Position numbers and translations under genes: made by a program. Positions 11,813 to 62,987 of a stretch of 64,000 nucleotides of DNA are shown here, piece by piece. The stretch comes from Candidatus Magasanikbacteria bacterium GW2011_GWC2_37_14 (GTDB lineage Bacteria; Patescibacteriota; Patescibacteriia; Magasanikbacterales; UBA922). The DNA is taken from assembly GCA_000990355.1 (NCBI GenBank), contig LBSX01000001.1, positions 3,392 through 67,391 on the forward strand. Reading direction: 5' to 3'. Numbering within the stretch: position 1 is the first letter of the stretch; every line of letters begins with the position of its first letter. The notes under the pieces are model-generated. The model saw only the letters and a program-made list of their open reading frames with translations. It did not search any database and had not been told where the DNA came from.

Positions 11813-11918
11813 ATTACGTTATTGCTAGAGTGGCGAATTTGGCTTAGTTAAGCTATTTTCATCCCAAGCAATATAGAGTGAACCTTACAATTTAGTTGAG
11901 TTTACAGTGTCATCAAGC

Positions 11919-11981
11919 GTCATTCCCGCGAAGGCGGGAATCTATATTTCATTGTAAGATCTCCGCCTGCGCGGAGATGAC
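11919..11981. repeat. Bipartite palindromic element (GTCATTCCCGCGAAGGCGGGAATC ... GATCTCCGCCTGCGCGGAGATGAC)
   Basis: Same architecture and near-identical arms to the copy at 58217-58278. It lies in the 5' leader of the GC-rich gene. Confidence 0.7.
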
Positions 11982-12123
11982 GCCAAACAAACGCACCAAA
12001 GGGTGTCTAAATTCTTATCTTTGTACAGGTAAGAACCTAGATGCCCTTTGGTCGAGGGGGCTTCATTCGCTCGGAAATCCCGAGCACGAAAATTTCGACC
12101 ACGAACCACCATGGGAGAGACAG

Positions 12124-14170: not shown

Positions 14171-14283
14171 GTCATCCTGAATTTACCTGCCTATCGGCAG
14201 ACAGGTTTCAGGATCTTTCATAAAATAATATTTATTTAGTAAGTTAGATTAAGGGATAGATGCTGAAACAAGTTCAGCATGAC
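14171..14283. repeat. Bipartite palindromic element, GTCATCCTGAA..TTCAGGATC / GATGCTGAA..TTCAGCATGAC type
   Basis: Near-identical copy at 17367-17479, diverged copies at 23457-23548 and 25056-25147. The 3' hairpin overlaps the stop and last codons (..KLSC*) of the adjacent paralog. Confidence 0.8.
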
Positions 14284-17366: not shown

Positions 17367-17479
17367 GTCATCCTGAATTTACCTGCCTATCGGCAGACAG
17401 GTTTCAGGATCTTTCTTAAAATAATATTTATTTAGTAAGTTAGATTAAGGGATAGATGCTGAAACAAGTTCAGCATGAC
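17367..17479. repeat. Bipartite palindromic element (copy of 14171-14283)
   Basis: ~120 bp near-identical to 14165-14290, including the AT-rich spacer. Confidence 0.8.
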
Positions 17480-20437: not shown

Positions 20438-20558
20438 TCTCGAGCCACAGCGAGAGATCCCTTTTCTATGAGATTAACTCGCTATATTAAATTAGTTGTT
20501 TAGTTAAATCGAAAGGGATTCCTCACCCCGCATTTGCGGGGTTCGGAATTATGGTGAC
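20438..20558. repeat. ~115-bp palindromic element; an inverted copy is at 58596-58703
   Basis: The reverse complement of 58596-58703 aligns almost base for base (atctcgagccacagcgagagatccc...gggattcctcacc...ttcggaat). Its end supplies the last codons (PNPANAG*) of paralog 5. Confidence 0.8.
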
Positions 20559-22024: not shown

Positions 22025-23461
22025 TTAAATAACCCTTTTTATTATACCATTAAATGCATCCACCTCAACCACATCGCCATCATGTAAAAACTTAGTAGCA
22101 AATTCTGTACCAACCACACAAGGTATTTGTAACTCTCGCGCTACAATGGCTGCATGGCATAACATTCCCCCTTGATTAGTTACGATTGCTTTAGCTTTGC
22201 GAATCGCTGGTAAATAATCTGGATCAGTCATAGGACAAACTAAAATTTCTCCTTCTTCCATTTTATCAACTTCATCCATAGAATGTAAAATATTTACCAC
22301 TCCAGTTTCTTTTCCCTGCCAAATTGGTGTGCCTTGTAAAAATTCTATGGCCGGGACTTCCTTCTCAACAACTTGTAACAAGCTCTCGGCTTCCGAGCCA
22401 GAACAATGTAATACCTCTCGTTTGGAGCCCAAGACACAATAACTTTTGATTCTTCGATTCAATTCATCTACATCGGGTGATTGTCCATTCATTAACAACT
22501 TTTTTAACTCGCCAATGGTTAACATAAAGAGCTGATTATAAGACAAACCGTGTTCAGCGGCAATTTTTTTAAAAAAATTACGCTGGTGGGCACCGGCTAT
22601 AGAAATTACATCCCAATTTTCCTCTTTCAAGTCAGCTAAATCGCGCACAATATCCAAAAATTTCCAAGCTTCGGGGTATTTAATTTTTAAATCTTCTAAG
22701 ATTGTTTCTGCTTCTTGATGCTGTAACTCTTTTTTCTGAATTAATAATTTCAATTTTTCTTCTGGCTTTTCTTTACTCAACTTTTCTATTTCCTGGCGGT
22801 AATATTCTGCATTAAATGGCTCCGTCCACCAACATAGAGAATTAGTCCAGCCATAATCCGTCGCATGTTTTTTAAAATCTTCTGCAACATCCCCACCAGC
22901 TTTTAATTTTATGGCAATGTTTAATAAATTAATTTCTCCTAAAATTATTGGGAAGTCTTTTTTAGGCAAGGCCGCCTTGGCTACTAGCTCCGCTTGGCTT
23001 ATTTCTCTTCCAGCTAAATTAAATTTTTGTGGCAAATCCAAAAAAATTTCTTGCAAAGCTCCATCAGCTAACATAATACCAAGCCAATAACGGGTATGAT
23101 TAAAACTGGTAAGTAAATAATCTTCAATCTTCTCCCAAACCAAACTCGTTAATTGTATTCCTAAAAGTTTATCTCTGGAAGCATAAATTAATTTTTGATA
23201 ATCTTTTCTAAACTGCACAGAATCATTTTTTAAAATTTCTTTTACCTCCTGCACTCCCTCTCGATAATCTTCTTCCAAAATAAATTGACCATGACCTAAA
23301 ACTAAATAATATTTTGGTACATATGGCACAGTAATTTTAAAATCTCCATCAACAGCGTTGCGCGACATTCCATCTTCAAACATGCCAGTATGTTTCCATC
23401 GGCCAAACAAATGCCATTTATTATTTTTGATTATTTCTGTTTGATTCATATTATCTGTCAT
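22025..23461 (-). CDS. PEP-utilising-enzyme His-domain protein, array paralog 6
   Basis: 478 aa; ...GTPIWQGKETGVVNIL...GGMLCHAAIVARELQIPCVVGT. Confidence 0.75.
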   Translation of the reverse strand: MTDNMNQTEIIKNNKWHLFGRWKHTGMFEDGMSRNAVDGDFKITVPYVPKYYLVLGHGQFILEEDYREGVQEVKEILKNDSVQFRKDYQKLIYASRDKLLGIQLTSLVWEKIEDYLLTSFNHTRYWLGIMLADGALQEIFLDLPQKFNLAGREISQAELVAKAALPKKDFPIILGEINLLNIAIKLKAGGDVAEDFKKHATDYGWTNSLCWWTEPFNAEYYRQEIEKLSKEKPEEKLKLLIQKKELQHQEAETILEDLKIKYPEAWKFLDIVRDLADLKEENWDVISIAGAHQRNFFKKIAAEHGLSYNQLFMLTIGELKKLLMNGQSPDVDELNRRIKSYCVLGSKREVLHCSGSEAESLLQVVEKEVPAIEFLQGTPIWQGKETGVVNILHSMDEVDKMEEGEILVCPMTDPDYLPAIRKAKAIVTNQGGMLCHAAIVARELQIPCVVGTEFATKFLHDGDVVEVDAFNGIIKRVI

Positions 23462-23548
23462 CCTGAATTTATTTCAGGATCTTTTTTAAGTATTTTTTAT
23501 TTAATAAATCTAGATAACGAAAAGATGCTGAAACGAGTTCAGCATGAC
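23457..23548. repeat. Bipartite palindromic element (GTCATCCTGAA..TTCAGGATC / GATGCTGAAACGAGTTCAGCATGAC)
   Basis: Same two-hairpin architecture as 14171-14283. Confidence 0.7.
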
Positions 23549-25047: not shown

Positions 25048-25055
25048 AAACGTTT

Positions 25056-25147
25056 GTCATCCTGAACTTGTTTCAGGATCTTTAATAAAATAATATTTAT
25101 CTAGAAAATAATCTAACGAAAAGATGCTGAAATAAATTCAGCATGAC
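25056..25147. repeat. Bipartite palindromic element (GTCATCCTGAACTTGTTTCAGGATC / GATGCTGAAATAAATTCAGCATGAC)
   Basis: Same family as 14171-14283. Confidence 0.7.
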
Positions 25148-28028: not shown

Positions 28029-29107
28029 ATTTTTTTTATTATACCATTAATGGCATCCACTTCTACCATATCGCCATCTTTTAAAACTTTAGTGGAAATT
28101 TTGGTTCCAGTGATACAAGGGATATTTAATTCACGCGCCACAATTGCTGCATGACAAGTAATACCACCTTCGTCAGTAATAATTGCCTTAGCTTTTTTCA
28201 TAATCGGGATAAAAAAAGGATTTGTCATAACCGTCACAAGGACATTTCCTTCCTTAAAATTAATAATTTCATCATTTTTTAAAATAATATTGACAATTCC
28301 TTTTATTGAGGTTGATCCGGTACAAGAAACCACCCCTCTAATTTCTTGATTGATAAATTGATTAACAGGTGCGGAAAAATAAAAATCTTGTTTTTCAAAA
28401 AAAACTTCTTTTGAAATATTAGTATATACTTTATCACCTAAAAAAATATAACCTGTAGAACGATTCTCTAATTCCTCTTTATTGGGTACATAATTATTAT
28501 CATCAAGCATTTTTTGAATTTCTGTAAAAGTTACAAAAGAAGCATATTTATTTTCCAGTTTTCTTTGCGATAATAAAATTCTAGCCACTGCTCGCCAATA
28601 CTGTACCAATTCTTGAATGGCACCTTCTGATTTTACTCTAGCATTTATCAGGCGTTCTAAAATATCATTTGCTTCTTTAGGATATTTTTCTTTAAGCTGT
28701 GGGGCCCACTGTGCCTGTGGCAATAAATAACTTACTGTATACCAAGGGTACATTTCTCTAGAGAGTTGTTTTATTTTTTCAAATACTGCTCTGTTTGCAA
28801 AATCTTTATTTTTATTAATCTTCCCCATTAATTCACGTATTTGTTTGACCAGTAGAATATAATGATTAATTTTATTTTCACTGAAAAAACCATTTTTAGG
28901 ATCGGTATTTACTACCGCTTTAAAAAAGGCTTTGGCTTCATCAACTACTCTATAAGTTTCCAACAATCGTCCATTAAAATAATATAACTGACTAGGAATG
29001 CCTATTCCAAAAACCTCCATGAGCCTTGGATTCATTTGTCCTGACCACCACTCTGCCCAAGCCAATGTATAATCGCGAGTCCAAGCTAAAAAAATTTCTT
29101 TTTTCAT
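28025..29107 (-). CDS. PEP-utilising-enzyme His-domain protein, array paralog 10 (short N-domain, 360 aa)
   Basis: ...GSTSIKGIVNIIL...GGITCHAAIVARELNIPCITGT. The N-terminal region is ~120 aa shorter than its siblings. Confidence 0.7.
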   Translation of the reverse strand: MKKEIFLAWTRDYTLAWAEWWSGQMNPRLMEVFGIGIPSQLYYFNGRLLETYRVVDEAKAFFKAVVNTDPKNGFFSENKINHYILLVKQIRELMGKINKNKDFANRAVFEKIKQLSREMYPWYTVSYLLPQAQWAPQLKEKYPKEANDILERLINARVKSEGAIQELVQYWRAVARILLSQRKLENKYASFVTFTEIQKMLDDNNYVPNKEELENRSTGYIFLGDKVYTNISKEVFFEKQDFYFSAPVNQFINQEIRGVVSCTGSTSIKGIVNIILKNDEIINFKEGNVLVTVMTNPFFIPIMKKAKAIITDEGGITCHAAIVARELNIPCITGTKISTKVLKDGDMVEVDAINGIIKKI

Positions 29108-30561
29108 AATTTTCTAATTATACCATTAATTATATCTACTTCCACTATGTCACCGTCTTTAAATACTTTGGTGCCAATTTTTGTACCTACCAAACAAGGA
29201 ATGCCAAGCTCACGAGAAACAATGGCTGCATGAGACAATAATCCCCCTTCGTCCGTAACAATGGCTCCTGCGCGCTCCATAGCGGGCACTAACGTGGGAT
29301 TGGTAGCTGGTGCAATCAAAATATCGCCTTTGTTTACTTTTTTAGCGTCGGCATCGCAAAGCACCAACTTTACTATTCCTGTGATCACTCCAGGCGAAGC
29401 ACCTTGACCACTTAACTCGATAATATTTTCATACTTTTCTATTTTCAATTCTTGTTTTTTATATTCTTCAAGTTTTTTACCAGAAAGCACAATAACTTTA
29501 TTACCTTCTAAAATAATTGCACTTTCAATTACTCGTTCATTTAATTTTTCTAAAGATAAAATTAATTCTCCACGATTTAAACTGTCTAAAATTTCTACAC
29601 CCCGCATTTCAATCAATTGTTTGTATGACATTCCTAAACGTCTGGCAATTTCATTAAACAATGGTTTTAAATTTACAACTGTAAAAGTAAAAACCTCGTC
29701 TACCAAACTATAAGCTGAAGCTTGAGCGCGAGCCGATTCAATATACTTAAGAATATTTTCTGGTAAATCTAATTCATTAATAAGCAATTCTCGCTTACTT
29801 AAATCATTTTCTAATTGTTTTATTTTTTGTAGTTCATTTTCAACACCATTATTCAATACTTCTTTAATTCTTTCTAAAATAATATCTTTATTATACAATT
29901 CACCGCGAAAATAATACTGCCCTAAATAAGCAAATTTACATAAATGTGTACTCACTAAATTTTCTAATTCTTGATTATAACCATTATCTTCTACAAACTT
30001 CGCTAAATTTAATAAAAAAAATTTTTCTTGCCTTGTTTCTGAAGAATCTTCTAATTGTAGTAAGATATTAAAATCTTCGTTTTGTTTATTAATATTTGGT
30101 TCTTTTTTAGCAATCTCGGCAAAAATTAAATCCGGTAAAAATTTATTAGTAATAATGGCGTTGTAAGCAAAAGCCCACATTTTACGAGTACAAGCTAAAT
30201 ATTCGGAAAAATTTATAAACAACACTTCTGTTTCTTGTTCAGACCAATTAAGATCTTTTATTTGTAAAACAAAATCTTTTAATTGCTTAATGCGTCTTTT
30301 ATATTCATTGGCGTATTCTAGCAAAGCACCAGGATTAGCAAGTTCTTTTTTACGAAAAAAATCACAAAAATCTGCTAAATTCTCTGAACCAAACCAACGA
30401 GCCCCAGCTAATTGCCGAAAGTTTTGAGGCTTAAATTCGGGCTTATTAAAGTCTAAACCTAAAAATGCCATAAATCCCTCCATAGCAGTGTCAATCAAAA
30501 GCAAGGCATGATTTTCGCCTCTACGAGTAATTTCCTCCCAAATTAGCTTACTTTCGGCCAT
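29104..30561 (-). CDS. PEP-utilising-enzyme His-domain protein, array paralog 11 (variant GGLLSHAAIVSREL)
   Basis: 485 aa; ...GQGASPGVITGIVKLV...GGLLSHAAIVSRELGIPCLVGT. Confidence 0.7.
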   Translation of the reverse strand: MAESKLIWEEITRRGENHALLLIDTAMEGFMAFLGLDFNKPEFKPQNFRQLAGARWFGSENLADFCDFFRKKELANPGALLEYANEYKRRIKQLKDFVLQIKDLNWSEQETEVLFINFSEYLACTRKMWAFAYNAIITNKFLPDLIFAEIAKKEPNINKQNEDFNILLQLEDSSETRQEKFFLLNLAKFVEDNGYNQELENLVSTHLCKFAYLGQYYFRGELYNKDIILERIKEVLNNGVENELQKIKQLENDLSKRELLINELDLPENILKYIESARAQASAYSLVDEVFTFTVVNLKPLFNEIARRLGMSYKQLIEMRGVEILDSLNRGELILSLEKLNERVIESAIILEGNKVIVLSGKKLEEYKKQELKIEKYENIIELSGQGASPGVITGIVKLVLCDADAKKVNKGDILIAPATNPTLVPAMERAGAIVTDEGGLLSHAAIVSRELGIPCLVGTKIGTKVFKDGDIVEVDIINGIIRKL

Positions 30562-40140: not shown

Positions 40141-40148
40141 AATGTTTT

Positions 40149-40235
40149 GTCATTCCTGCACCCGTCTACACGAGTGTAAACTCCAGCAGAAAATTAGTTA
40201 TTTATTATATGGATCCCCGCCTTCGCGAGGATGAC
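40149..40235. repeat. Bipartite palindromic element (GTCATTCCTGCACCC... / GGATCCCCGCCTTCGCGAGGATGAC)
   Basis: GTCAT...ATGAC termini. The right arm closely matches the arms at 58217-58278 and 11919-11981. Confidence 0.65.
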
Positions 40236-40295
40236 AATGAGTAGTATACCACAAAAAATAAGCCCTGGAAACCAGGGCTTATTAATTTTTATTTT

Positions 40296-44324: not shown

Positions 44325-44385
44325 ATTCCTTAAGTTTAATAATTAAGATATTTATTATAGCATCTAACTGTGTAGATTACAAAAA

Positions 44386-44560
44386 ACAAAAAACCGCCTT
44401 TTCTCCTTGCTCAAATTATTATTTTTAATAAGCTGAATAGGGTGGCGGTTTTTGTCACCCATTTTTGCTTGGGTGCGCCCGGAAGTGGGCGAAGGTGCGA
44501 GAGGTGGGCGCTGCTAAACAGCGAAAGGCGACGACGAATCCAGGAAGGTGCGGAAGGTAG
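44386..44560. repeat. GC-rich ~170-bp repeat, copy A (inverted relative to copy B at 49095-49268)
   Basis: The reverse complement of 49150-49266 matches 44386-44500 almost exactly (ggtggcggtttttgtcacccatttttgcttgggtgcgcccggaagtgggcg, plus the hairpin aaaaaccgcc...ggcggttttt). Similarity then decays over the next ~70 bp. Confidence 0.75.
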
Positions 44561-49136: not shown

Positions 49137-49268
49137 TCAGCCCAGCCTCGCTCCTTCCCCCGCCCACTTCCGGGCACACCCAAGCAAAAATGGGTGACAA
49201 AAAACCGCCACCCTGCTCAGTTTATTAAATCTAATAATTTGAACAAGGAGAAGAGGCGGTTTTTTGTT
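49095..49268. repeat. GC-rich ~170-bp repeat, copy B; ends in the hairpin aaaaaaccgcc..(45 nt)..ggcggtttttt
   Basis: See copy A. The terminal inverted repeat plus T-tract looks like a terminator for the 48940-promoted transcript. Confidence 0.75.
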
Positions 49269-49380
49269 TGTTTCCCTCCCCTACAAGGGGAGGGTTAGCC
49301 TGCCTGCCGGTAGGCAGGGGTGGGGTCTGGCAAACAGCGAAACCTCCTCCTCGCCTCCCCCTTATAGGGGGAGGAAAATT
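49264..49380. repeat. Cluster of three GC hairpins (ccctcccctacaaggggaggg; cctgcctgccggtaggcagg; cctcccccttatagggggagg) downstream of hpf
   Basis: Perfect palindromes directly readable. Likely terminator(s) for hpf on the minus strand. Confidence 0.65.
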
Positions 49381-50716: not shown

Positions 50717-52663
50717 ATGTTGAACTTAACAGACAACCCAACTATCTACGTAACCCGCGATATTGAACGCGCACTCGGAATTCCGGTTAACACCAAGGGT
50801 TATTTTATTATCTCAAATTATTCCGACTTTGCCAAGAGTTATAAAAAAAATAGAAATATACTTTTGATTAAAGCAAAGCCCCGTACCGACCGAGGGTCTG
50901 GTACTGGGGAAAAAGAACAATTAGATACATGGGAGTTGTTGCAAAATAAAAAAGTAAAAAAGTTTATTGGCACACTGTCATCCCGAGCACACCCCGCAAA
51001 TGCGGGGGAAGCCGAGGGATCCCTTAAACAAAGTAAAAGGGATTCCTCCACGGGAGCCTGCCCCGAGCGGACTAGCCGAGGGGGTCGGAATGACACACAC
51101 GCCAAAATCCTAGTTTTTAAAAACACTCTACAAATAGAAAAAACCTGTGCCGAAAACGGTTGGGAATTATTAAATCCACCAGCAAAAATTTCCAATGCAG
51201 TAGAAGAAAAAATTTCGCAAATTACTTGGCTTGGACCATTAAAAAAATATTTACCCAAATACCAAGTTTTAAAATGCAAAGATATTGATCTAGAAAAAGA
51301 ATCGCAGAGGAATTATTTTTCCGAAGTGAGGACCAAGCAGAGCGAACCCGCAACGAGGGAAAATAATTCCTCGAAATTCTTTAAACCATTTATCTTACAA
51401 TTTAATCGTTCACATACTGGTAACGGAACATTTTTAATTACTAATGAACAACAATTAGTGGAATTGCAACAAAAATTTCCTGAACGAGAAGTACGAATTG
51501 CCGAATATATTCCCGGTCCGCTTTTTACCAACAATAATGTGGTAACCAAAAATGCTATTTTGCTTGGCAACCTAAATTATCAAATCACTGGTCTTAAACC
51601 TTTTACAGATTTATCTCTTTCTACCATTGGTAATGATTGGGCTCTGCCACACAAAATTTTGAACAAAAAACAAATTGCCGAGTACAATAAAATTGCCAAT
51701 GAGGTTGGTTTACGCTTGCAAAAAGCAGGATGGTGCGGACTTTTTGGGATTGATGTAGTACAAAACGAACATACTAAAAAATTATACTTACTAGAAATTA
51801 ATTGTCGACAGCCCGCAAGTACGACTTATGAATCACAGTTGCAACTCTCTGTCATCCCGAGCGAAGTAAAACGAAGTCGAGGGATCCCTTACACAACAAC
51901 CAAGGGATTCCTCCACTCGTCGCGAGACTCGGTCGGAATGACAGATGAGGTTACTACTTTTGAAGCACATTTACTTTCGTTAACAAATTTTGATTTAAAA
52001 AACAAAAAATTAATAAAAATAAATAATGGTGCACAAATAATTCAACGCGTTACGCAACACACGCCGGTAATTAATATTCCGAAAATTACCAAAAAACAAT
52101 TCTTTAATTACTTTGTTTACAACAACAGCAAAGACAATGCCGACTTGCTTCGTTTACAAACCACTGTTGGCATAATGAAAGAACACAACATATTAAATGA
52201 TTATGGAAGAATTCTGCAATACTTTGTAATTGGCGCGAAAGATGGCAAACCCTGGTGTGCTGACCGAGCGGCGGGAATAATTATTAAGGACAATAAAATC
52301 TTAGTAATAAAAAGGAATAAATATGGTGAAGAATTTTATATTTTTCCCGGAGGAACTGTGGAAAAAGGAGAAAAACTAAAAGAAACAGCAATTAGAGAAA
52401 TAAAAGAAGAAACCAATTTAACCTGTACTCTACAAAAAACAAAGCCACTATTTTACGAAGATAAAATTGATGGCAAAAAAATCTATCACTATTTTATCGA
52501 TAAATGTACTGGAACTGCTAAAATCAAAAGCAATTCCGAAGAATTTATCCGTAACAAAGAAGGCAATACTTATGAATTGGTCTGGATTGATTTGTTAGAA
52601 TTAAAAAATATTGAATTACACCCAATTGAAATTAAAAAAGAATTATTAAAAAAATATGTCTAG
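50717..52663 (+). CDS. ATP-grasp-domain protein fused to a C-terminal NUDIX hydrolase domain; carries two in-frame palindromic-element insertions
   Basis: Central ATP-grasp motifs (..EVRIAEYIPG.., GWCGLFGIDVVQNEHTKKLYLLEINCRQ). C-terminal Nudix box GGTVEKGEKLKETAIREIKEETNL. The start is chosen at the internal Met (MLNLTDNP); the track start at 50678 abuts murB. Confidence 0.6.
   Translation: MLNLTDNPTIYVTRDIERALGIPVNTKGYFIISNYSDFAKSYKKNRNILLIKAKPRTDRGSGTGEKEQLDTWELLQNKKVKKFIGTLSSRAHPANAGEAEGSLKQSKRDSSTGACPERTSRGGRNDTHAKILVFKNTLQIEKTCAENGWELLNPPAKISNAVEEKISQITWLGPLKKYLPKYQVLKCKDIDLEKESQRNYFSEVRTKQSEPATRENNSSKFFKPFILQFNRSHTGNGTFLITNEQQLVELQQKFPEREVRIAEYIPGPLFTNNNVVTKNAILLGNLNYQITGLKPFTDLSLSTIGNDWALPHKILNKKQIAEYNKIANEVGLRLQKAGWCGLFGIDVVQNEHTKKLYLLEINCRQPASTTYESQLQLSVIPSEVKRSRGIPYTTTKGFLHSSRDSVGMTDEVTTFEAHLLSLTNFDLKNKKLIKINNGAQIIQRVTQHTPVINIPKITKKQFFNYFVYNNSKDNADLLRLQTTVGIMKEHNILNDYGRILQYFVIGAKDGKPWCADRAAGIIIKDNKILVIKRNKYGEEFYIFPGGTVEKGEKLKETAIREIKEETNLTCTLQKTKPLFYEDKIDGKKIYHYFIDKCTGTAKIKSNSEEFIRNKEGNTYELVWIDLLELKNIELHPIEIKKELLKKYV
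50987..51094. repeat. Bipartite palindromic element (GTCATCCCGAGC..GAGGGATCCC / GGGATTCCTCC..GGTCGGAATGAC) in-frame in the ATP-grasp/NUDIX gene
   Basis: Encodes ..SSRAHPANAGEAEGSLKQSKRDSSTGACPERTSRGGRNDTH.. . The core ccccgcaaatgcgggg recurs at 20527-20541. Confidence 0.8.
51851..51942. repeat. Bipartite palindromic element, second in-frame copy in the same gene
   Basis: GTCATCCCGAGCGAAG..CGAGGGATCCC / GGGATTCCTCCACTCGTCGCGAGACTCGGTCGGAATGAC, encoding ..SVIPSEVKRSRGIPYTTTKGFLHSSRDSVGMTDE.. Confidence 0.8.
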
Positions 52664-53390
52664 TTTGTCTACTCAAGCTCTGGAAGTTATTCAAAATTAT
52701 CTTCACCTCCCCTTTCCTGGGCATAATATTTCTTGCCCTTATTTTAACAACCGCCGGGCCCGACTTCGTGGAGGTTTGCGGGCATTAATTGGCAAAGGTA
52801 GTCCCGCAGATATTGTGGAAGAAGCAACCATAATTTCCTTGCGTGAAAAAATTAATTTAAACAAAATAACTGACGAAGAATTAAAAAAGTTTTTAATTGA
52901 TAAAAAAATTGGCATTGATTGTTCGGGCTTGGTTTACCACATTCTTGATGCCGAAATGAAAGCACAAGGCAAAGGATCTTTACAAAAAATTCTTAAACGT
53001 CCGTGGTTTAAAAATCCCATTAGAAAATTATTAGTAAAATTACGACCAATTGAAAATACTGGTGTGGGAACTTTTAATCATGAAATAAACAGCATGGAAA
53101 TAAATTTAAAAGACCTTGCTCCAGGTGATTTGATTATTATTATGGGTGCTGGGGTAAAACAGGATTATAACCACATATTACTCATAAATCAGATAGCAGA
53201 TAACAAAATTCAATATACTCACTCGTTTCAGTATCCAAATGATGGCCTTTATAATCATGGTGTACGACAAGAAACAATCACTATTACCGATCCTAACAAA
53301 TCTTTGTTAGACCAAACCTGGTCCGAACCGCAAATGCAGGATTACGCGAAAAAAGCCAAGGAATGTAAAATTGCAAGACTTAGGACATAA
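52656..53390 (+). CDS. hypothetical protein with NlpC/P60-like Cys motif (IGIDCSGLVYHIL)
   Basis: 244 aa. A DCSGLV active-site-like motif and later His residues; weak call. Confidence 0.35.
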   Translation: MSSLSTQALEVIQNYLHLPFPGHNISCPYFNNRRARLRGGLRALIGKGSPADIVEEATIISLREKINLNKITDEELKKFLIDKKIGIDCSGLVYHILDAEMKAQGKGSLQKILKRPWFKNPIRKLLVKLRPIENTGVGTFNHEINSMEINLKDLAPGDLIIIMGAGVKQDYNHILLINQIADNKIQYTHSFQYPNDGLYNHGVRQETITITDPNKSLLDQTWSEPQMQDYAKKAKECKIARLRT

Positions 53391-53402: not shown

Positions 53403-53433
53403 AAAACCCTGTACCGTTCTGGTACAGGGTTTT
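53403..53433 (+). terminator. Rho-independent terminator
   Basis: aaaaccctgtacc-gttct-ggtacagggtttt: perfect 13-bp stem plus T-run. Confidence 0.7.
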
Positions 53434-53563
53434 AATATTTTCAAGACCCAATCTTAATTAACAAATAATTACTAATTAAGATTGCTGGGGCCTTGAACGA
53501 CCACCAGCCAGAGGCGGGTTGGTCGAGGGATAAGAAAGAACGGAGGGAAGGAACAGACGCTAT

Positions 53564-54157
53564 CTAGCCGCTGGTGGGCCAGAGGCGCTTGTTGGTGGCG
53601 ATGGCCATGTCGTAATTGGCGGTGATCTGGAAGACCTTGTGGGCCATGAGCTTCTGGAAATGCAATCTCATGGTGGCATGACCACCCACTTCCAAGAACA
53701 GGGTGTAGTCGGTCGGGTCGCAGAGGACAGTGACCGACTTGTGGTTCTTGGCCCCAGCGCGCAACATGGCGGGGCCACCGATGTCGATGTTCTCGACCAG
53801 TTCGTCGCGCGTGACGTCGGGGTTGGCCGCCACCAGCTCGAAAGGGTAGAGGTTCACGACAACCAGATCGATACCCTGGATGCCGTGCTTCTCCAGGAAG
53901 TTCAGGTGTACCCGGTTGTCGCGCTTGTAGAGGATGCCCGCATGGATCTGCGGGCAGAGGGTTTTTACCCTACCATCCAGACCCTCGGGGAAGCCCGTGA
54001 CCTCGGCCACGTCGGTGACCGCGATGTCCTGCTCACGCAGGAACTTGGCGGTACCGCCCGTACTGAGGATCTCCCAGCCGAAGTCCACCAAGGCCTTGGC
54101 CAGTTCCACTACACCGGTCTTGTCGAACACACTGATCAACGCTCGGGGCATGGGCAC
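53564..54157 (-). CDS. Stand-alone PurH N-terminal (MGS-like / IMP cyclohydrolase) domain protein, encoded on a ~62% GC island
   Basis: 197 aa; ALISVFDKTGVVELAKALVDFGWEILSTGGTAKFL...GRVKTLCPQIHAGIL...VVNLYPF...DIGGPAMLRAGAKNHKSVTV. This aligns motif by motif with the IMPCH domain of PurH, but the ~390-aa AICAR transformylase domain is absent. There is a perfect AGGAGGTG SD 5 nt upstream. Confidence 0.7.
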   Translation of the reverse strand: MPMPRALISVFDKTGVVELAKALVDFGWEILSTGGTAKFLREQDIAVTDVAEVTGFPEGLDGRVKTLCPQIHAGILYKRDNRVHLNFLEKHGIQGIDLVVVNLYPFELVAANPDVTRDELVENIDIGGPAMLRAGAKNHKSVTVLCDPTDYTLFLEVGGHATMRLHFQKLMAHKVFQITANYDMAIATNKRLWPTSG

Positions 54158-54288
54158 CTCCTGATTACTGGCTAAACCGGAAAGACGTTAATTTCAATTT
54201 AACACAAATAATGCAAATTAGCAAGAGTGTGATGTTTCGATACAAAAACTTGATTTTTTATTGATTTTTTGCTAAGCTATACGGGCTT

Positions 54289-55529: not shown

Positions 55530-56321
55530 ATGTATCTAAACTGGAACGCACTTACAATTGATGTATTTTCAGATAATAAAATCAACTCTCTTTACAACGA
55601 GGGTTATCTTTTTACCCGCACAGGCAAAGGTGATATGTACCAGACGCGAAGTATTCGCATTGATTTAAGTAAGTTTGAATTGAGTAGTGAAAATAAACGA
55701 GTGTTGAAAAAGACTGAGGACATAGGATTTAAAGTATATGATATTCCATACGAAAAATATGATTGGTCAATTGGCAAAATGGCCAAGGATTTTTATGAAA
55801 CAAGGTTTGGTAGAGGAACGCCTGCACTGAACCGAGCCAAAGGCTCTGGTTTAGTGTTTTCGGCAAATAAAATAAAAGAATTATTAACAACTAAACATAA
55901 TTTTAATAAGTTATTTGTTTACAGTCTGTCATTGCGAGAAGCCCCCGAGGGCGACGAAGCAATCCCCAGTAAGAATGGGATTGCCACGCCCTCCACTTCG
56001 TTACGGGCTCGCAATGACAGTGTCGGCTACGTAATCTGTCACGAAACAAACGAACTACTTCACTACTCTTACCCATTTTATAACTTAGATCTTAAATCCT
56101 ATGTCTTAAGTCCTAACACGGGCATGGGTATGATGCTCCAAGCAATTATCTACGCTCAAAAACAAGGCAAAAAATATGTTTATCTAGGTTCTGCCAAAGA
56201 CGCCAAAGCGAAATACAAATTACAATTTGCAGGACTAGAATGGTTTGATGGAAAAACTTGGCAAACAGATTTGGAAGAATTGAAACAGCAAATTATGCAA
56301 AATAAGCAACAAGCAGATTAA
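55530..56321 (+). CDS. aminoacyl-tRNA-dependent transferase-like protein (ATE/Bpt C-terminal motif; FemXAB-like peptidoglycan branch transferase also possible)
   Basis: C-terminal YVYLGSAKDAKAKYKLQFAGLEWFDG resembles the ATE_C/Bpt YLGY..KM.YK..F.P.E motif. It lies between mraY and murC. Contains an in-frame palindromic element. Confidence 0.35.
   Translation: MYLNWNALTIDVFSDNKINSLYNEGYLFTRTGKGDMYQTRSIRIDLSKFELSSENKRVLKKTEDIGFKVYDIPYEKYDWSIGKMAKDFYETRFGRGTPALNRAKGSGLVFSANKIKELLTTKHNFNKLFVYSLSLREAPEGDEAIPSKNGIATPSTSLRARNDSVGYVICHETNELLHYSYPFYNLDLKSYVLSPNTGMGMMLQAIIYAQKQGKKYVYLGSAKDAKAKYKLQFAGLEWFDGKTWQTDLEELKQQIMQNKQQAD
55928..56018. repeat. Bipartite palindromic element (GTCATTGCGAG..GCAATCCCC / GGGATTGCC..CTCGCAATGAC), in-frame
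   Basis: Encodes ..SLREAPEGDEAIPSKNGIATPSTSLRARNDS.. Confidence 0.8.
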
Positions 56322-56328: not shown

Positions 56329-56706
56329 ATGACAGTAATAAAAACTTTTAAAGAATTACTAGTCTGGCAAAAATCACATCAGCTAACTTTAATAATTTAT
56401 AAAATAACCAATGATTATCCAAAATACGAAATATTTGCTTTAACAAGTCAAACAAGACGAGCTTCCTCCTCAATACCTGCAAACATAGTTGAAGGTTTTA
56501 GAAGACAAAGTCTAAAAGATAGCATAAACTTTTACAATACTGCTGATGCTTCTCTAGAAGAATTAAAATATCATTTACTACTAGCAAAAGACTTAAATTA
56601 TATTAGTATTGAACGATATAACTACGTTCTTGAAAAAGCAGAAGAAGTTGGCAAATTACTTACTGGATGGTTACAAAGTCAAAGAAAATTTTTAAATACT
56701 AAATAA
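56329..56706 (+). CDS. four-helix-bundle protein (23S rRNA intervening-sequence protein family)
   Basis: 125 aa; ELLVWQKSHQLTLIIYKIT..FPKYEIFALTSQTRRASSSIPANIVEGFRRQS matches the family signature. Confidence 0.7.
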   Translation: MTVIKTFKELLVWQKSHQLTLIIYKITNDYPKYEIFALTSQTRRASSSIPANIVEGFRRQSLKDSINFYNTADASLEELKYHLLLAKDLNYISIERYNYVLEKAEEVGKLLTGWLQSQRKFLNTK

Positions 56707-56712
56707 TCTGAT

Positions 56713-57075
56713 ATGGAGTCATTTGAAGAATTTTTAAAAAGAAAAGGAAACAAATTAATAAAAATGAAAGATATTAGCCGAAAAGGATATTATTATTTTC
56801 AAAGAGAAGCTTTAACATACATGCAACAGTTTAATCTCAAAGAAAAATATTATATTCTTGAGAGATTAAAAATTGTTAAAATGGAAGGTGAAATTACTAA
56901 CAAAAATAATAAAATTGGTAATGTCGAATATCGTATAGGTTATTATATTATAGGAAAAATAAGAAAAGCAAAAGACCGCTGGATTTGGGGACAATTTTGT
57001 CCAATGATTCCATCTAGTGATTTCACAAAATTAATTAAAAAAGCAAAAAAAGAAAAGACTATAATCAATACTTAA
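56713..57075 (+). CDS. hypothetical protein
   Basis: 120 aa, K-rich, no motif recognised. Confidence 0.35.
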   Translation: MESFEEFLKRKGNKLIKMKDISRKGYYYFQREALTYMQQFNLKEKYYILERLKIVKMEGEITNKNNKIGNVEYRIGYYIIGKIRKAKDRWIWGQFCPMIPSSDFTKLIKKAKKEKTIINT

Positions 57076-57108: not shown

Positions 57109-58617
57109 ATGAGAATCCATTTCATCGGTATCTGTGGTGTGGCTATGTCGGCCTTGGCAATAGCTTTTAAAAAAGCTGGACACGAAAAACTGCCTGATGG
57201 CAGTCTCGTGCCATGCTTTGAGGTATCGGGGAGTGATGTGGGATTTTTTCCACCGGTTTCTACAAATTTGGAAAAACATAATATAAAATTTTATCCTGGC
57301 TGGCATCCAGAAAAAATGGGAACGCCTGATTTAGTGGTAGTTGGCAATGTCGCTAGTTCCACCAATCCCGAATGGCAATACGTGCAAGAAAAAAAATTAA
57401 ATTACAAATCTTACCCAGAAGCAATTGAAGAATTTTTTATTAAAGAAAATTCCATTGTTTGTGCTGGTACTTATGGTAAAACCACTACTTCGGCGTTGTT
57501 GGCTTTTGTTTTAAGTGAATGCGGATACAACCCAAGTTATATGTTTGGCGGGATTGCTGTGGATGAGGGGTTTGACAGTGCCAGCTTAGGAAATGAGCCA
57601 CGTAAAGTTCAGACTTCGTCTGAACCACGTGGCGGTTACTCCGTAACCGAAGGGGATGAGTACAAGAGCGCACGCTGGGACAATGGAGCAAAATTTTTTC
57701 ATTATCACCCCACTCACCTACTCTTAACTGCCATACAGTGGGATCATGCTGATGTTTATCCAACAGAAGAAAGTTATTTTGAGGCATTTGAAAAATTAGT
57801 TAAGTCTGTTCCAGAAAATGGATTGCTTGTAATGAGTGAACAGATATCAGATAGCAAATATCAGATAGCAAATAGCATACGATATGGTCAATCCGAAAAA
57901 AATGATTACGTATATTTTGACATCCACCAAACAAAAGACGGAATTAAATTTCAAATTAAACATAATGCTATTTGTTATTTGTTATCTGCCAATATGTTCG
58001 GTTCTTACAACGCCGAAAACATAACTGGAGTATTCGCATTGGCAAATGAGATCGGTTTAGAACCAGAAAAAATTATTTCTGCAATAAATAAATTTAAAGG
58101 CTTAAAAAGAAGATTGGAAAAACGTTATGAAAATAAAATAACAATTTTTGATGATATTGCTCATTCACCTGCCAAAGCAAATAGTGTTTTACAAACTTTA
58201 GCCAAAATATATAAGCGTCATCCCCGCGAAGGCGGGGATCTTACGGAGATTCAAGATTCCCGCCTTCGCGGGAATGACGAACCAAAACTATTTTGTGTTT
58301 TTGAACCAAACACTGGAAACCGTCAAGCACAATCTGCGCCAAGCTATAGCAATGCTTTCAAAGATGCCGATGAAGTTATTATTCCCAAACTTACTAAATT
58401 AAAAACTTCCGAAGAATTAAAACATTGGGAAGGAAAAGAATTAGCCGAGATTATCTCCCAAATCCATAACAACGTAAAATATCTTGAAAATGATAATGAA
58501 TTAATAAATTATTTAATTAATAATACAAGCGAAGGCGATGTGATTGTTTTTTGTGGCAGTCACGGCTTTCGTGGCATGATTGATGAATTAATTTTGTCAT
58601 TCCGAACCCACAGGTGA
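57109..58617 (+). CDS. murC: Mur ligase family protein (UDP-N-acetylmuramate--L-alanine ligase MurC / Mpl-like) with in-frame palindromic inserts
   Basis: IHFIGICGVAMSALA..GSD Rossmann start and P-loop CAGTYGKTTTSALLAFVL. In-frame inserts at 57590-57640 (palindrome gccacgtaaagttcagac/gtctgaaccacgtggc) and 58217-58278. The C-terminus (..ILSFRTHR*) is supplied by the element at 58596. Confidence 0.75.
   Translation: MRIHFIGICGVAMSALAIAFKKAGHEKLPDGSLVPCFEVSGSDVGFFPPVSTNLEKHNIKFYPGWHPEKMGTPDLVVVGNVASSTNPEWQYVQEKKLNYKSYPEAIEEFFIKENSIVCAGTYGKTTTSALLAFVLSECGYNPSYMFGGIAVDEGFDSASLGNEPRKVQTSSEPRGGYSVTEGDEYKSARWDNGAKFFHYHPTHLLLTAIQWDHADVYPTEESYFEAFEKLVKSVPENGLLVMSEQISDSKYQIANSIRYGQSEKNDYVYFDIHQTKDGIKFQIKHNAICYLLSANMFGSYNAENITGVFALANEIGLEPEKIISAINKFKGLKRRLEKRYENKITIFDDIAHSPAKANSVLQTLAKIYKRHPREGGDLTEIQDSRLRGNDEPKLFCVFEPNTGNRQAQSAPSYSNAFKDADEVIIPKLTKLKTSEELKHWEGKELAEIISQIHNNVKYLENDNELINYLINNTSEGDVIVFCGSHGFRGMIDELILSFRTHR
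58217..58278. repeat. Bipartite palindromic element (CATCCCCGCGAAGGCGGGGATC / GATTCCCGCCTTCGCGGGAATGAC) in-frame in murC-like
   Basis: Encodes ..HPREGGDLTEIQDSRLRGNDE..; sibling of 11919-11981. Confidence 0.8.
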
Positions 58618-59493: not shown

Positions 59494-59539
59494 ATTGCTA
59501 AGATTAATAATATTAAACTTCAATAATTGTAACACAGTT

Positions 59540-60523
59540 ATGAAAACTATTCAACAGTCCTACCCCGAACTAGCACAAGCACTTGACACAACTGAGGTAT
59601 ATTTAAAACGCGAAGACCAACACAAATATGGCTCACACAAAGGACGTTCAATTCCCTTAATGATCAAAAAATATTCTAAAGAAGGACCACACACTGCCAC
59701 GATTGGTGGGCCATTTTCTGATTTTGTAATTTCTTCTTCGGGAAATGCCGCTTTGGCAGCCATTCATGCTATTCAAGCTCATAATCGCAATAACGATAAT
59801 AAACTCACTTTAAAAATTTTTATCGGAGAAAATATTAATGCGGAAAAATTAAAATTATTAATTAATTTAATTGAAGATCCTAACATCACTTTAACTCAGG
59901 TAGAAAATCCCAAACAAACTGCTTTTTTGGTAGATAAGGAAGGACAAGCAAAAAATCTTCGCCAATCAACCGATGAATTGGCTTTGGAAGGTTACACAGA
60001 ACTTGCTGAAGAATTAAATAAAATTCCCAATTTACAAGCAGTATTTATTCCTACTTCAAGTGGCACTACAGCCGAAGGTTTGGGTTTGGCTTTTGCTAAA
60101 CTTAATTACCAAGCACAAATCCACATTGTACAAACCACTGCTTGTCATCCGATAGTGGATGTCATTGCGAGGACTCCGCACACTACGGAGGACGAAGCAA
60201 TCCCAGTGGATATTGATGAAACAAAGGGATTGCCACGCCCCGCTCGAGCGGGGCTCGCAATGACAGCCACTTCACTCGCCGATGCAATTGTCGACCAAGT
60301 TGGTCACAGAAAAGAAAAAGTTACAGATATAATTAAAAATTCCAAAGGCGCTGGCTGGATTGGCACGGACGATGAAATTTTGAATGCAATTGAACTACTA
60401 AAAAATACTTGTAAAATAAAAATTTCTCCAAATTCAGCATTAGCAATTGTCGGATTAAAAAAAGCCATTGCTAATGGCTTTAAATTCTCTGGACCAGTGG
60501 TTTGTTTAATTACGGGGCAATAA
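59540..60523 (+). CDS. PLP-dependent enzyme of the tryptophan-synthase-beta fold (TrpB-like LKREDQHKYGSHK motif) with an in-frame palindromic insert
   Basis: VYLKREDQHKYGSHKGRS resembles the TrpB PLP-lysine motif LKREDLNHTGSHK. Glycine-rich loop later. Start taken at MKTIQQSYPELAQ. Confidence 0.55.
   Translation: MKTIQQSYPELAQALDTTEVYLKREDQHKYGSHKGRSIPLMIKKYSKEGPHTATIGGPFSDFVISSSGNAALAAIHAIQAHNRNNDNKLTLKIFIGENINAEKLKLLINLIEDPNITLTQVENPKQTAFLVDKEGQAKNLRQSTDELALEGYTELAEELNKIPNLQAVFIPTSSGTTAEGLGLAFAKLNYQAQIHIVQTTACHPIVDVIARTPHTTEDEAIPVDIDETKGLPRPARAGLAMTATSLADAIVDQVGHRKEKVTDIIKNSKGAGWIGTDDEILNAIELLKNTCKIKISPNSALAIVGLKKAIANGFKFSGPVVCLITGQ
60161..60264. repeat. Bipartite palindromic element (GTCATTGCGAGGACTCCGC..GCAATCCC / GGGATTGCCACGCCCCGCTCGAGCGGGGCTCGCAATGAC), in-frame
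   Basis: Encodes ..VIARTPHTTEDEAIPVDIDETKGLPRPARAGLAMTAT.. . A partial GTCATCC half-site lies just upstream at 60144. Confidence 0.8.
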
Positions 60524-61214: not shown

Positions 61215-62987
61215 ATGGAAGGACTAGAAGAAATTTTACTAAAAATTATCCTGCAAAACCCCGCAAATGGCGAGGTGTTTTATAATTTACTCCGTAAAGA
61301 AACCAATAAATTAAAAACTTCTATTCCTCCCAAACGCGAGTTGATTATAGCTTATCAAAAATTAATAAAAAATAAAAGGGCTGTACCCAACAAGCATTTT
61401 GAATTTTTGCTACGCAAAGCGCAAATTCGCACTCTTTCGGGGGTAGCAGTTATTACTTCCCTAGTTAAACCCTATAATTGCCCGGGAAACTGCGTATATT
61501 GCCCTAGCGAGGCCAGAATGCCCAAAAGTTATCTTGCAAGCGAACCAGCCGCTGCCCGCGCTCTAGGGCTTAAATTTAACCCCTATGAGCAAATGCGCCA
61601 GAGGATCTTGATGCTGGAACAAAATGGCCATCCAACCGACAAAATTGAGTATATTATCAAAGGTGGTTCTTGGAATGCCTATCCATTAAAATATCAGTAT
61701 TGGTTTATTTTGGAATCGTTTAGAGCGTGTAACGAATTGTCATCGCGAACCCTACGAAGTAAAGGGTGTGGCGATCCCAAGGATTCACAAAAAAAGACTG
61801 GGATTGCTTCATCTCGCTCGAGCGAGACTCGCAATGACAGCTTGGAACAATTACGCCAGCAATTAAAAATCGAACAACGAAAAAACGAAACTTCCAAACA
61901 CCGAATTATTGGCTTAACTTTGGAAACACGACCTGACTGTGTAACACCAACCACCATTGTCCACATGCGAGAACAAGGTTGCACCAGAATTGAGCTTGGA
62001 CTACAAGCACCAGATGATAAAATTTTAAAATTAGTTGATCGCGGACACACAGTACAACAATTTAAAGATGCAATGCTGCTGCTCCGTCAAGCTGGTTTTA
62101 AAGTTGATCTACATTTTATGCCCGACTTACCCGGCACCACTGCCAAGCATGATGTAGAAATGTATAAATTATTATTTTCTGACCCGGGCCTTAAACCAGA
62201 CATGGTAAAAATTTATCCCTGTACAGTAATTAAATCTGCTCCACTTTATAAATGGTACAAAGCTGGTAAATACAAACCCTATTCTGAGCATAAACTTTTT
62301 GAAGCTTTAATTGCCATGAAATTAGCTACTCCACGCTATTGTCGTATTTCACGACTAATTCGTGATATTCCAGAAAATGAAATAAGTGGTGGAAATATTA
62401 TTACCAATTTGCGACAACATTTGGCAACAGAAATGAAAAATCGAGGATTAAAATGCCAGTGTCTTCGTTGTCGAGAAATAGGACATCAACAAGACTTAAG
62501 ACTTAAGACTGAAGACTTAAGACTATTTACAGACAAATATGAAACCACTGGTGGTACAGAATATTTCCTTTCTTATGAAGATAAAAATAGACAAGTGGTG
62601 TTTGCTTTTTTACGTCTTAGACTTCCCACTGTCATTGCGAGCCCTGCCCGAGCAGGGCGTGGCAATCCCAATGTTTTAAATACTTCCATGGGGATTGCTT
62701 CGTCGCCCTCGGGGGCTTCTCGCAATGACACCGCCTTTATCCGCGAACTCCATACTTATGGACAACTAATGACATTAAAACATGAACACATCAAAGCATT
62801 AAAACAAAAAAATGATGTACAACATACAGGTTTTGGGAAAAAGTTAGTATTAGAAGCCGAAAAAATTGCCAAGAAAAATCATTATCAAAAACTCTCAATT
62901 ATTTCTGGAGTTGGAGTACGGGGATATTACCGCAAACTTGGTTATAAATTAGAAAAAACTTATATGACTAAAAAAATCTCCACATAG
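61215..62987 (+). CDS. elp3: Elp3-family radical-SAM/GNAT tRNA uridine(34) acetyltransferase homolog, with two in-frame palindromic inserts and a short tandem repeat
   Basis: Radical-SAM cysteine cluster ..YNCPGNCVYCP... The central ELP3 block ETRPD..GCTRIELG.Q is present. C-terminal GNAT (..QHTGFGKKLVLEAEKIAKK..). Start taken at MEGLEEIL. Confidence 0.7.
   Translation: MEGLEEILLKIILQNPANGEVFYNLLRKETNKLKTSIPPKRELIIAYQKLIKNKRAVPNKHFEFLLRKAQIRTLSGVAVITSLVKPYNCPGNCVYCPSEARMPKSYLASEPAAARALGLKFNPYEQMRQRILMLEQNGHPTDKIEYIIKGGSWNAYPLKYQYWFILESFRACNELSSRTLRSKGCGDPKDSQKKTGIASSRSSETRNDSLEQLRQQLKIEQRKNETSKHRIIGLTLETRPDCVTPTTIVHMREQGCTRIELGLQAPDDKILKLVDRGHTVQQFKDAMLLLRQAGFKVDLHFMPDLPGTTAKHDVEMYKLLFSDPGLKPDMVKIYPCTVIKSAPLYKWYKAGKYKPYSEHKLFEALIAMKLATPRYCRISRLIRDIPENEISGGNIITNLRQHLATEMKNRGLKCQCLRCREIGHQQDLRLKTEDLRLFTDKYETTGGTEYFLSYEDKNRQVVFAFLRLRLPTVIASPARAGRGNPNVLNTSMGIASSPSGASRNDTAFIRELHTYGQLMTLKHEHIKALKQKNDVQHTGFGKKLVLEAEKIAKKNHYQKLSIISGVGVRGYYRKLGYKLEKTYMTKKIST
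61800..61838. repeat. Half-copy of palindromic element (GGGATTGCTTCATCTCGCTCGAGCGAGACTCGCAATGAC), in-frame in elp3
   Basis: Encodes ..TGIASSRSSETRNDS.. Confidence 0.75.
62631..62739. repeat. Bipartite palindromic element (GTCATTGCGAGCCCTGCCCGAGCAGGGCGTGGCAATCCC / GGGATTGCTTCGTCGCCCTCGGGGGCTTCTCGCAATGAC), in-frame in elp3
   Basis: Encodes ..TVIASPARAGRGNPNVLNTSMGIASSPSGASRNDTAF.. . The tandem repeat gacttaagacttaagactgaagacttaagact at 62494-62526 is also in-frame (DLRLKTEDLRL). Confidence 0.8.

Follow-up and report, generated by a model that had tools for sequence, protein, structure and literature searches.

A 64-kb stretch of the genome of Candidatus Magasanikbacteria (Candidate Phyla Radiation (CPR)/Patescibacteria) from groundwater, hereafter the window, carries 15 imperfect palindromes, seven of which lie in frame inside conserved protein-coding genes. 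The best explanation overall, to which we assign a probability of about 0.8, is that they are selfish repeats of the CGTC/TGTC-tagged repetitive extragenic palindromic (REP) type that are tolerated at gene junctions and in protein loops. Their identity as such repeats, taken together with their nature as insertions, is very probable; to judge from their sequences, they fit a superfamily that has already been described (the type of the Ssn-related motifs (SRM) and the Neisseria NTS) and are thus not a new class. New here are the host phylum, the density in genes, the recurrent hot spots, the strain-level polymorphism, and the long-loop variants that form four-way junctions. Near-perfect repeats of the NTS type occur here in a phylum without an earlier report. 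For CGTC-tagged REPs, no mobilising enzyme has been known since 2013, and a cognate single-stranded DNA nuclease was found in 2025, without evidence of mobility. This lineage, which has filled and empty alleles between ~97%-identical strains and between sister species and recurrent hot spots in enzymes that are well understood (Elp3, Mur ligase, ATP-grasp/NUDIX), is a natural system for testing if such repeats move and by what means. After Rickettsia, it is a second, independent case of selfish DNA within protein-coding genes of a reduced genome. The inserts inflate and fragment CPR protein families, and masking them in alignments and structure prediction is advised.

The Elp3 and ATP-grasp/NUDIX proteins encoded in the window are 100% identical to NCBI entries of the GW2011 bin, and the region under study is 100% identical across three independent assemblies of the same population, so that the elements are not assembly artefacts. 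The genome has a GC content of ~35%, a background against which they form GC-rich islands. In total, ~77 kb of the host genome were examined, namely the window and two extensions, one of which (L132) reaches 3.4 kb past the left window edge with a 100% identical overlap; the other (L001) contains another GTCATTGCGAG-type element at ~14961, 2.2 kb past the right window edge, between the SHMT and recJ genes. The sister species used for comparison is syntenic, with ~83% nucleotide identity (loci L004 and L005).

The motif GTCATYSYGA was found 17 times on both strands of the window, compared with an expectation of 0.42, and 100 shuffles that preserved dinucleotides gave no more than 2. Half-sites in which the tag precedes a perfect 6-bp stem and a C comes next were also enriched over expectation (12 vs 0.46). 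The original prediction, made from the sequence of the window, had proposed about 15 copies per 64 kb, all of which were located; the 17 GTCAT-tagged occurrences compare with 15 elements. Some of its positions required correction: the copy placed at 50987 extends from 50977 to 51094, that placed at 61800 from 61739 to 61838, and that placed at 11919 ends at 11982.

The repeat unit consists of an unpaired (C/T)GTC tag, a stem starting with the pairs A-T and T-A, a loop that can hold nested hairpins, and a C right after the stem. All 15 elements are composed of two tagged hairpins in inverted orientation, with outward tags and a spacer of ~10-60 nt, giving an imperfect palindrome of 62-120 nt; the general layout of the GTCATTGCGAG-type elements is GTCATTGCGAG...GCAATCCC...GGGATTGC. 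The tag stands immediately 5' of the stem in 27 of 30 half-sites, and the bases invariant over all subfamilies of the window are GTC, then AT..AT, then C. AT-starting stems of 8-9 bp are present in 12 half-sites (e.g. ATTCCCGC/GCGGGAAT and ATCCTGAA/TTCAGGAT); in the GTCATTGCGAG, CCCGAG and TTCCGA types, the stem starts with AT and has just 5 bp before an internal loop. Loops of 4-5 nt are found in the copies at 11918, 58217, 23457 and 25056 and in the right halves of those at 14171 and 17367, and the loops of the other copies are 12-45 nt long and hold nested hairpins. When folded as single strands and compared with shuffled sequence, nine of ten copies had z-scores of about -3.4 to -8, while the degenerate copy at 40149 reached just -1.8. 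A single strand folds into either two hairpins or a four-way junction; the latter, consisting of an outer stem, two side hairpins and a central stem-loop, is the fold of the long-loop types.

Comparison with relatives bore out the prediction that the segments are insertions and not native domains: most orthologues lack them, the corresponding sites of the sister species differ, and strains are polymorphic. Solved structures of archaeal and bacterial Elp3 (PDB) align on either side of both inserts with no residues between, and in alignments of 30 Elp3 and 26 ATP-grasp/NUDIX relatives the segments occupy hypervariable positions that are short in most relatives; at site 50977, most orthologues have nothing. 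Alignments with the sister species break exactly at the element borders. Its sites are empty at 51851, 58217 and 58596 and hold unrelated repeats at 50977, 60161, 61739 and 62631 (at 60161 a shorter, AT-rich segment). The reciprocal situation also occurs, as the sister species has a GTCATTGCGAG element in its orthologue of ORF (open reading frame) 52656-53390, whereas the copy of this gene in the window is empty.

At shorter evolutionary distance, P0133 and P0137 are near-identical proteins that are unlike at both sites; the contigs of the two strains are 95-98% identical, and one has a CGTC dimer at site E1 where the other has none. Copies have been gained or lost recently in this Magasanikbacteria lineage. 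Element presence is scattered over a neighbour-joining tree of the host protein. At the E2 site of the ATP-grasp protein, at least six to ten of 86 orthologues carry CGTC-type elements, which belong to differing subfamilies and are always read as S-V-I-(P/L). From lineage to lineage, the same few loops are occupied repeatedly, by various subfamilies and also by repeat families unrelated to them. The proteins P0003, P0026 and P0087 have elements similar to that at elp3 site 2 (62631), at the same site. Within the window, the copies at 14171 and 17367 are near-identical, whereas the surrounding paralogous genes are far more diverged, which requires a new insertion or very efficient conversion.

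As predicted, all seven internal copies (50977, 51851, 55928, 58217, 60161, 61739 and 62631) are stop-free and keep the host ORF open. They are located in five genes within 12 kb (ATP-grasp/NUDIX with two copies, ATE_C-like, Mur ligase, PALP enzyme, and Elp3 with two copies) and add 21-40 residues, their length being a multiple of three bases. The residues G, S, R, P and A, in which the inserts had been described as rich, account for 50% of the insert residues and for 25% in the remainder of the host proteins; predicted insert junction peptides include QLQLSVIPSEVK, HPREGGDLTEIQDSR and LPTVIASPAR. Two copies had been thought to supply a stop codon to their host gene, which is an undercount. 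Six junction copies provide the last residues and the stop codon, namely those at 58596 (LSFRTHR) and 20438 (PNPANAG) and the four of the 14171 type (..KLSC). In the tandem array that holds the latter, four genes with an element end in KLSC, and their element-free paralogues in ..KL or ..KI. Intragenic copies have a GC content of 51-62% and two to four of six frames open, whereas intergenic copies have 27-45% GC, AT-rich spacers and many stop codons, as expected from purifying selection on random insertions.

The inserts had been expected in surface loops, and on predicted structures they are indeed coil of low confidence, with high confidence elsewhere in the folds. The AlphaFold2 model of the ATP-grasp/NUDIX protein (mean predicted local distance difference test score (pLDDT) 84, predicted template modelling score (pTM) 0.83) has a pLDDT below 50 only at residues 59-63, 93-125, 202-219 and 383-407, and these stretches are the two GTCAT elements and two other hairpin-derived inserts. 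In the Elp3 model, both elements (residues 190-215 and 485-514) are of low confidence, with coil at site 2 and coil plus a short predicted helix at site 1. In terms of these models, the internal copies are read through as predicted-disordered surface loops of enzymes. The two other inserts of the ATP-grasp/NUDIX gene, both low-pLDDT coil in the model, are in-frame hairpins of other families: CCCCGTACC..GGTACTGGGG at 50879-50909 encodes AKPRTDRGSGTG and is absent from the sister species too, and GGAATTATTTT..AAAATAATTCC at 51309-51370 is common to both species. A further lineage-specific insert is found in the Mur-ligase gene (57576-57647). At this position the sister species has a different 45-nt segment (L005 68-112), which is 98% identical to window positions 7622-7666 in an unrelated gene and thus indicates a further mobile in-frame repeat family.

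Table 1. The 15 tagged elements of the window. Residues given as ends of genes are followed by the stop codon that the element provides; aa, amino acids.
Positions	Type and structure	Location	Contribution to coding sequence
11918..11982	CGTC-tagged dimer; left half CGTCATTCCCGCGAAGGCGGGAATCTAT = NTS at 27/28 bases	intergenic, upstream of 63% GC block	
14171..14283	TGTC-tagged dimer; stems ATCCTGAA / ATGCTGAA, AT-rich spacer, extra hairpin nested in left loop	between two array genes; ends 8-10 nt before next start codon	end ..SC (..KLSC type) of gene 14274-15842 (-)
17367..17479	near-identical copy of 14171		end ..KLSC of gene 17470-18960 (-)
20438..20558	inverted copy of 58596 type, 91% identical	abuts start codon of gene 18957-20432	end PNPANAG of gene 20523-22013 (-)
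23457..23548	TGTC-tagged dimer; 8-bp stems, 5-nt loops		end ..KLSC of gene 23539-25047 (-)
25056..25147	TGTC-tagged dimer		end ..KLSC of gene 25138-26586 (-)
40148..40236	dimer; right half fits published SRM motif, left half degenerate	intergenic, downstream of secF	
50977..51094	dimer; ATCCC / ATTCC stems with nested loop hairpins	in frame in ATP-grasp/NUDIX gene	+~40 aa (LSSRAHP...GGRND)
51851..51942	second dimer of this gene	in frame in ATP-grasp/NUDIX gene	+~33 aa (VIPSEVKRSRGIP...SVGMT)
55928..56018	GTCATTGCGAG-type dimer	in frame in ATE_C-like gene 55530-56321	+31 aa
58217..58278	canonical CGTC dimer; 8-bp stems, GAAG loops, 10-nt spacer; right half (reverse complement) = NTS at 27/28 bases	in frame in Mur-ligase gene	+~22 aa
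58596..58702		3' end of Mur-ligase gene; reaches start codon of next gene (58708)	end LSFRTHR
60161..60264	GTCATTGCGAG-type dimer; four-way-junction fold	in frame in PALP-family gene 59495-60523	+35 aa
61739..61838	dimer	in frame in elp3 (site 1)	+34 aa
62631..62729	GTCATTGCGAG-type dimer	in frame in elp3 (site 2)	+33 aa

The CGTC-tagged REP superfamily (Di Nocera, De Gregorio, Rocco 2013, BMC Genomics 14:522; PMC3733652) is characterized by an unpaired terminal tag, CGTC, TGTC or CCTC, a stem of 8-9 bp with A-T and T-A as first pairs, a loop of 4-5 nt (some families have unusual loops) and short tails. Its members form inverted dimers, often heterodimers, have intragenic copies of 20-30 aa, and have no dedicated transposase; they include Neisseria dRS3 (CGTC-1) and Rickettsia RPE-6 (CGTC-1) and RPE-4 (CGTC-4), and the hosts in the 2013 survey belong to five phyla, without CPR, Cyanobacteria, Chloroflexota and Bacillota (PMC3733652). 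The elements of the window share the unpaired CGTC/TGTC tag, the AT-starting stem, a 3-nt tail, the inverted, spacer-separated dimers with often two unlike halves, in-frame genic copies of 20-30 or more aa, the lack of an adjacent transposase and, in the copies at 11918, 58217, 23457 and 25056, 8-bp stems with 4-5-nt loops. They differ in their CPR/Patescibacteria host and their density in genes (seven copies, five genes, 12 kb), in the 5-bp AT-stems broken by GAG/GAA and the long loops with nested hairpins of most copies, and in their tails, which are CCC or CTT and not CCA.

More recently, dRS3 was extended to the 28-nt NTS and to the degenerate SRM (Chenal et al. 2025, Nat Commun 16:2388; PMC11893778). 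Two half-sites (11918-11945 and 58252-58279 (-)) match the NTS CGTCATTCCCGCGMAVGCGGGAATCYRG at 27 of 28 bases, where the paper allows one mismatch, and the SRM pattern has three true half-site matches in the window (four raw, one of them chance-like), compared with 0.01 expected (100 shuffles). As in NTS and SRM, GTC ahead of the stem and C behind it are invariant and are the bases on which cutting and binding by the nuclease SsnA critically depend, and the loop content is free to vary; that study (PMC11893778) describes no in-frame genic copies and shows no mobility.

The elements had originally been likened to Rickettsia palindromic elements (RPEs; Ogata et al. 2000, Science 290:347, as presented in PMC10969869 and PMC3733652). 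The likeness in behaviour stands and is more than an analogy, since RPE-4 and RPE-6 belong to the same CGTC-tagged superfamily in the classification of PMC3733652; a Rickettsia-specific RPE identity does not, as the elements are pan-bacterial CGTC/TGTC-tagged REP dimers, a type also described as SRM. In so far as RPEs are described in these two sources, both are palindromic repeats that lie in frame in unrelated conserved genes of a reduced genome, in predicted surface loops compatible with the fold, and differ in that RPE-1 is longer (~150 bp) and encodes a conserved peptide, and in that RPEs are defined within Rickettsia. The elements reported here fall into several subfamilies whose interiors vary, are strongly polymorphic between strains, and recur at hot spots.

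When one genome per species was scanned for GTCATTGCGAG-N-GCAATCCC-N-GGGATTGC, at least 119 loci were obtained; hosts among the matches listed are Alpha-, Gamma- and Deltaproteobacteria, Nostoc, Melainabacteria, Chloroflexota, Bacillota, Bacteroidota, Nitrospirota, Gemmatimonadota and many Patescibacteria. Carriage by phages was rejected, a viral collection having given just three matches. Among 203 distinct half-elements, tag and stem are common, and the inner hairpins vary widely yet stay internally complementary. In 120 elements from many genomes, the base 5' of GTCAT is T in 69% and C in 23%, and the sole conserved feature of the flanks is one further complementary base, T/A or C/G at positions -1/+1 (68%). 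Neither target-site duplications (direct repeats of 2-5 nt at the flanks were not above chance in the 120 elements, and none were seen in the sister comparison) nor a target consensus were found in these two sets. Longer inverted repeats were rejected, as flank complementarity among the 120 elements is at background beyond positions 1-3, which makes the 7-nt extension at 60161 an isolated case. A classical miniature inverted-repeat transposable element was likewise discarded; its inverted termini are present, but target-site duplication among the 120 elements is at chance level. A literature search with the exact motifs retrieved only unrelated primers. The double-hairpin elements or GC clusters of fungal mitochondria are also GC-rich two-hairpin mobile elements in AT-rich compact genomes and are sometimes in frame; they are organellar and unrelated in sequence, and the likeness is one of analogy only.

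The original prediction had recommended a search for a cognate nuclease. A candidate is available from the literature, namely the Ssn family of GIY-YIG proteins (family domain cd10448), whose genes are often flanked by the repeats (PMC11893778). SsnA, a protein of 94 aa, binds the hairpin as single-stranded DNA only and cuts a few nucleotides upstream of the tag; critical bases are the three before the stem and the C after it, and the loop is dispensable and tolerates extensions (PMC11893778), which matches the nested loop hairpins of the window copies. A Nostoc locus (L018) has a 95-aa GIY-YIG gene (Pfam E = 3e-15) with GTCATTGCGA-type repeats on both sides, as in the published repeat-ssnA-repeat layout, and proteins of this Nostoc type are ~75% identical across phyla, in parallel with the conservation of the repeats; in a gammaproteobacterial locus (L035), a GIY-YIG homologue lies ~550 nt from an element. 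The ~77 kb of host genome contain no confirmed cd10448-type gene. They do contain a stand-alone GIY-YIG gene encoding 82 aa at L132 12137-12385, after rpsI and 0.6 kb beyond window position 1. Its product has 38% identity to the Nostoc protein and obtained no NCBIfam assignment, and the gene is a candidate nuclease only. The terminator hairpin of rpsI, ACAATCCCG..CGGGATTGT, is similar to the GCAATCCC/GGGATTGC junction at the centre of the elements.

In the preferred reading, the elements are non-coding, non-autonomous selfish repeats, and a small Ssn-like GIY-YIG nuclease may recognize their hairpins in single-stranded form. With the tags pointing outward, each strand would be nicked just outside either end of the dimer, which would fit the absent duplications and the ragged borders. 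In this gene-dense genome, the surviving copies are the harmless ones, which either lie at gene junctions and contribute a stop codon there or occupy enzyme surface loops that are permissive. With a GIY-YIG gene of the UPF0213 type as the only one found in this genome, the mobilisation step is inferred, and we propose mobilisation of the Ssn type only tentatively. That CGTC/SRM dimers are actively mobile in CPR by an undescribed transposition- or homing-like route, in which GIY-YIG nicks just outside the outward tags are followed by repeated installation of the released or copied dimer in the same few loops, is rather unlikely; if true, protein surface loops would be the main 'intergenic space' of compact genomes and a steady source of new disordered peptide segments.

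Several observations weigh against the interpretation as tolerated REP-type insertions or against its nuclease part. Most window copies have long loops and 5-bp stems with interruptions, and conform neither to the strict SRM pattern nor to the rule of 4-5-nt loops. A cd10448-type Ssn gene was found neither in the window nor in the CPR loci examined, and the 82-aa GIY-YIG protein, unlike that of Nostoc, matches UPF0213 structures best, its gene being without flanking tagged hairpins. The published role of Ssn is to modulate transformation, and movement of the repeats by Ssn was not demonstrated (PMC11893778). No filled site differs from its empty counterpart by a clean indel of element size; because some flanking codons differ as well, allele replacement by recombination may explain the differences, and the recurrence at identical sites could stem from old insertions that gene conversion made uniform and that were later lost. 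Taken further, transposition would have ended altogether, and old loop insertions would be kept alike by gene conversion, swapped by homologous recombination after DNA uptake and often deleted. The recurrence of the same site and the same frame across lineages and the proposal of dRS3/NTS as recombination substrates, shown to modulate transformation (PMC11893778), speak for such a course of events, together with the borders just mentioned. It is nevertheless unlikely, as close relatives carry different subfamilies or wholly unrelated repeat families at the same site, one gene without an element in the window contains one in the sister species, and the paralogues around the near-identical copies at 14171 and 17367 are highly diverged.

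The same repeats could also be moved by a Y1 (HUH) transposase of the REP-associated tyrosine transposase (RAYT) or IS200-IS605 kind, as proposed for GTAG REPs and REPINs. Like GTAG REPs, REPINs and BIMEs, the elements are hairpin units with a conserved 5' tetranucleotide that form inverted doublets, often heterodimers, without target-site duplication and with occasional genic copies, and each half keeps its own pairing through compensatory changes, which fits recognition of single-stranded DNA. We consider such an enzyme improbable, since the tag is (C/T)GTC (GTCA/CGTC) and not GTAG, no RAYT flanked by CGTC repeats was reported by Di Nocera 2013 (PMC3733652) or is otherwise known or found here, all-against-all BLAST clustering of 1,589 ORFs from ~120 element-bearing loci revealed no recurrent transposase, and no Y1 gene was seen among the window ORFs scanned, which are a part of the total. 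An autonomous element was likewise rejected: the clusters of ORFs near elements are housekeeping families only, and a pair of elements 1.3 kb apart (L053) merely flanks a glycosyltransferase gene. Retention for a benefit to the host, whether as mRNA hairpins, as a source of stop codons and ribosome-binding sites where the genes of an operon meet, as a shield of genes against incoming DNA, or as variable surface loops, would agree with the six donated stop codons, with AGGA-containing ends 8-12 nt before the next start codon, and with the reduction of transformation by NTS and SsnA in Neisseria (PMC11893778). It is slightly less probable still than a Y1 transposase, in view of the patchy presence even between ~97%-identical strains and of inserts that are predicted to be disordered, lie in functionally unrelated genes and are lacking in most orthologues.

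Intervening sequences are a known feature of the rRNA genes of CPR bacteria, and the inserts might by analogy be small introns, inteins or other intervening sequences that are removed before the protein is made or mature, or else be artefacts of assembly. Either is extremely improbable. Splicing would need neither the reading frame nor the freedom from stop codons that all seven internal copies show, 62-118 nt is far too short for inteins, no Rfam match was obtained at the gathering threshold, and the three independent assemblies are identical; inteins, introns and native linkers were ruled out by size, frame conservation and orthologue alignments. The Rfam scan covered the whole window, in which permissive settings gave only sub-threshold, chance-level matches (e.g. 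FtrB with 35 bits vs a cut-off of 66), and no tRNA or tmRNA was found in the scan of the window. A diversity-generating retroelement was considered on account of a bAvd-like gene at 56329-56706; no reverse transcriptase or template repeat was seen, and the idea was rejected because the variation consists in the presence or absence of whole repeats.

Several other features of the window and of related strains were noted. A 122-aa DUF559 (Vsr-like endonuclease) gene at 13129-13497 (-) stands between inverted repeats of ~60 nt (13062-13557), each of which consists of two hairpins (CCCCTCCTTACGAAGGAGGGG and CGAC..TCGCAG..TCGG). This nuclease-between-hairpin-repeats layout is like that of ssnA, for the CCCCTCC/GGAGGGG repeat family, which forms in-frame insertions in relatives too, with peptides such as PLNPPLIRGRG. 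Directly after the 11918 element, a 0.9-kb block (12100-13030) has 63% GC in the 35% GC genome; it contains a 323-aa ORF without Pfam match and has no Rfam match. The tandem array (14274-30561 (-)) consists of eleven paralogous genes of ~360-520 aa. Its junctions without an element are 4-nt gene overlaps, and those with an element are almost all element. Gene 17470-18960, the only one scanned against Pfam, has a C-terminal PEP-utilising-enzyme mobile domain, and the other members share similar C-terminal sequence.

A segment of 837 nt (53407-54243) with 55% GC is absent from the sister species and contains a truncated purH-like ORF (53564-54157 (-)) with MGS and the start of AICARFT/IMPCHase; it looks like a recently acquired fragment. 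A two-gene cassette (56329-57075), encoding a 125-aa 23S_rRNA_IVP/bAvd-like protein and a 120-aa protein, lies between the ATE-like and Mur-ligase genes, which adjoin in the sister species, where the cassette is missing. Two Magasanikbacteria strains with 95-98% identity (L129 and L131) differ by a 2.1-kb insertion in one of them (L129 5948-8090) with two ORFs (434 and 163 aa) and by an AT-rich palindromic element of ~100 nt adjoining a terminator (L129 1890-1980), which is absent in the L131 strain. Finally, inverted repeats of ~110 nt (44381-44491 and 49161-49272; 89-98% complementary) bracket 4.7 kb that include secA and are present in the sister species too (L004 2753-2872 and 8441-8557); the pair may mark a segment capable of inversion or movement, or else represent two copies of a different repeat.

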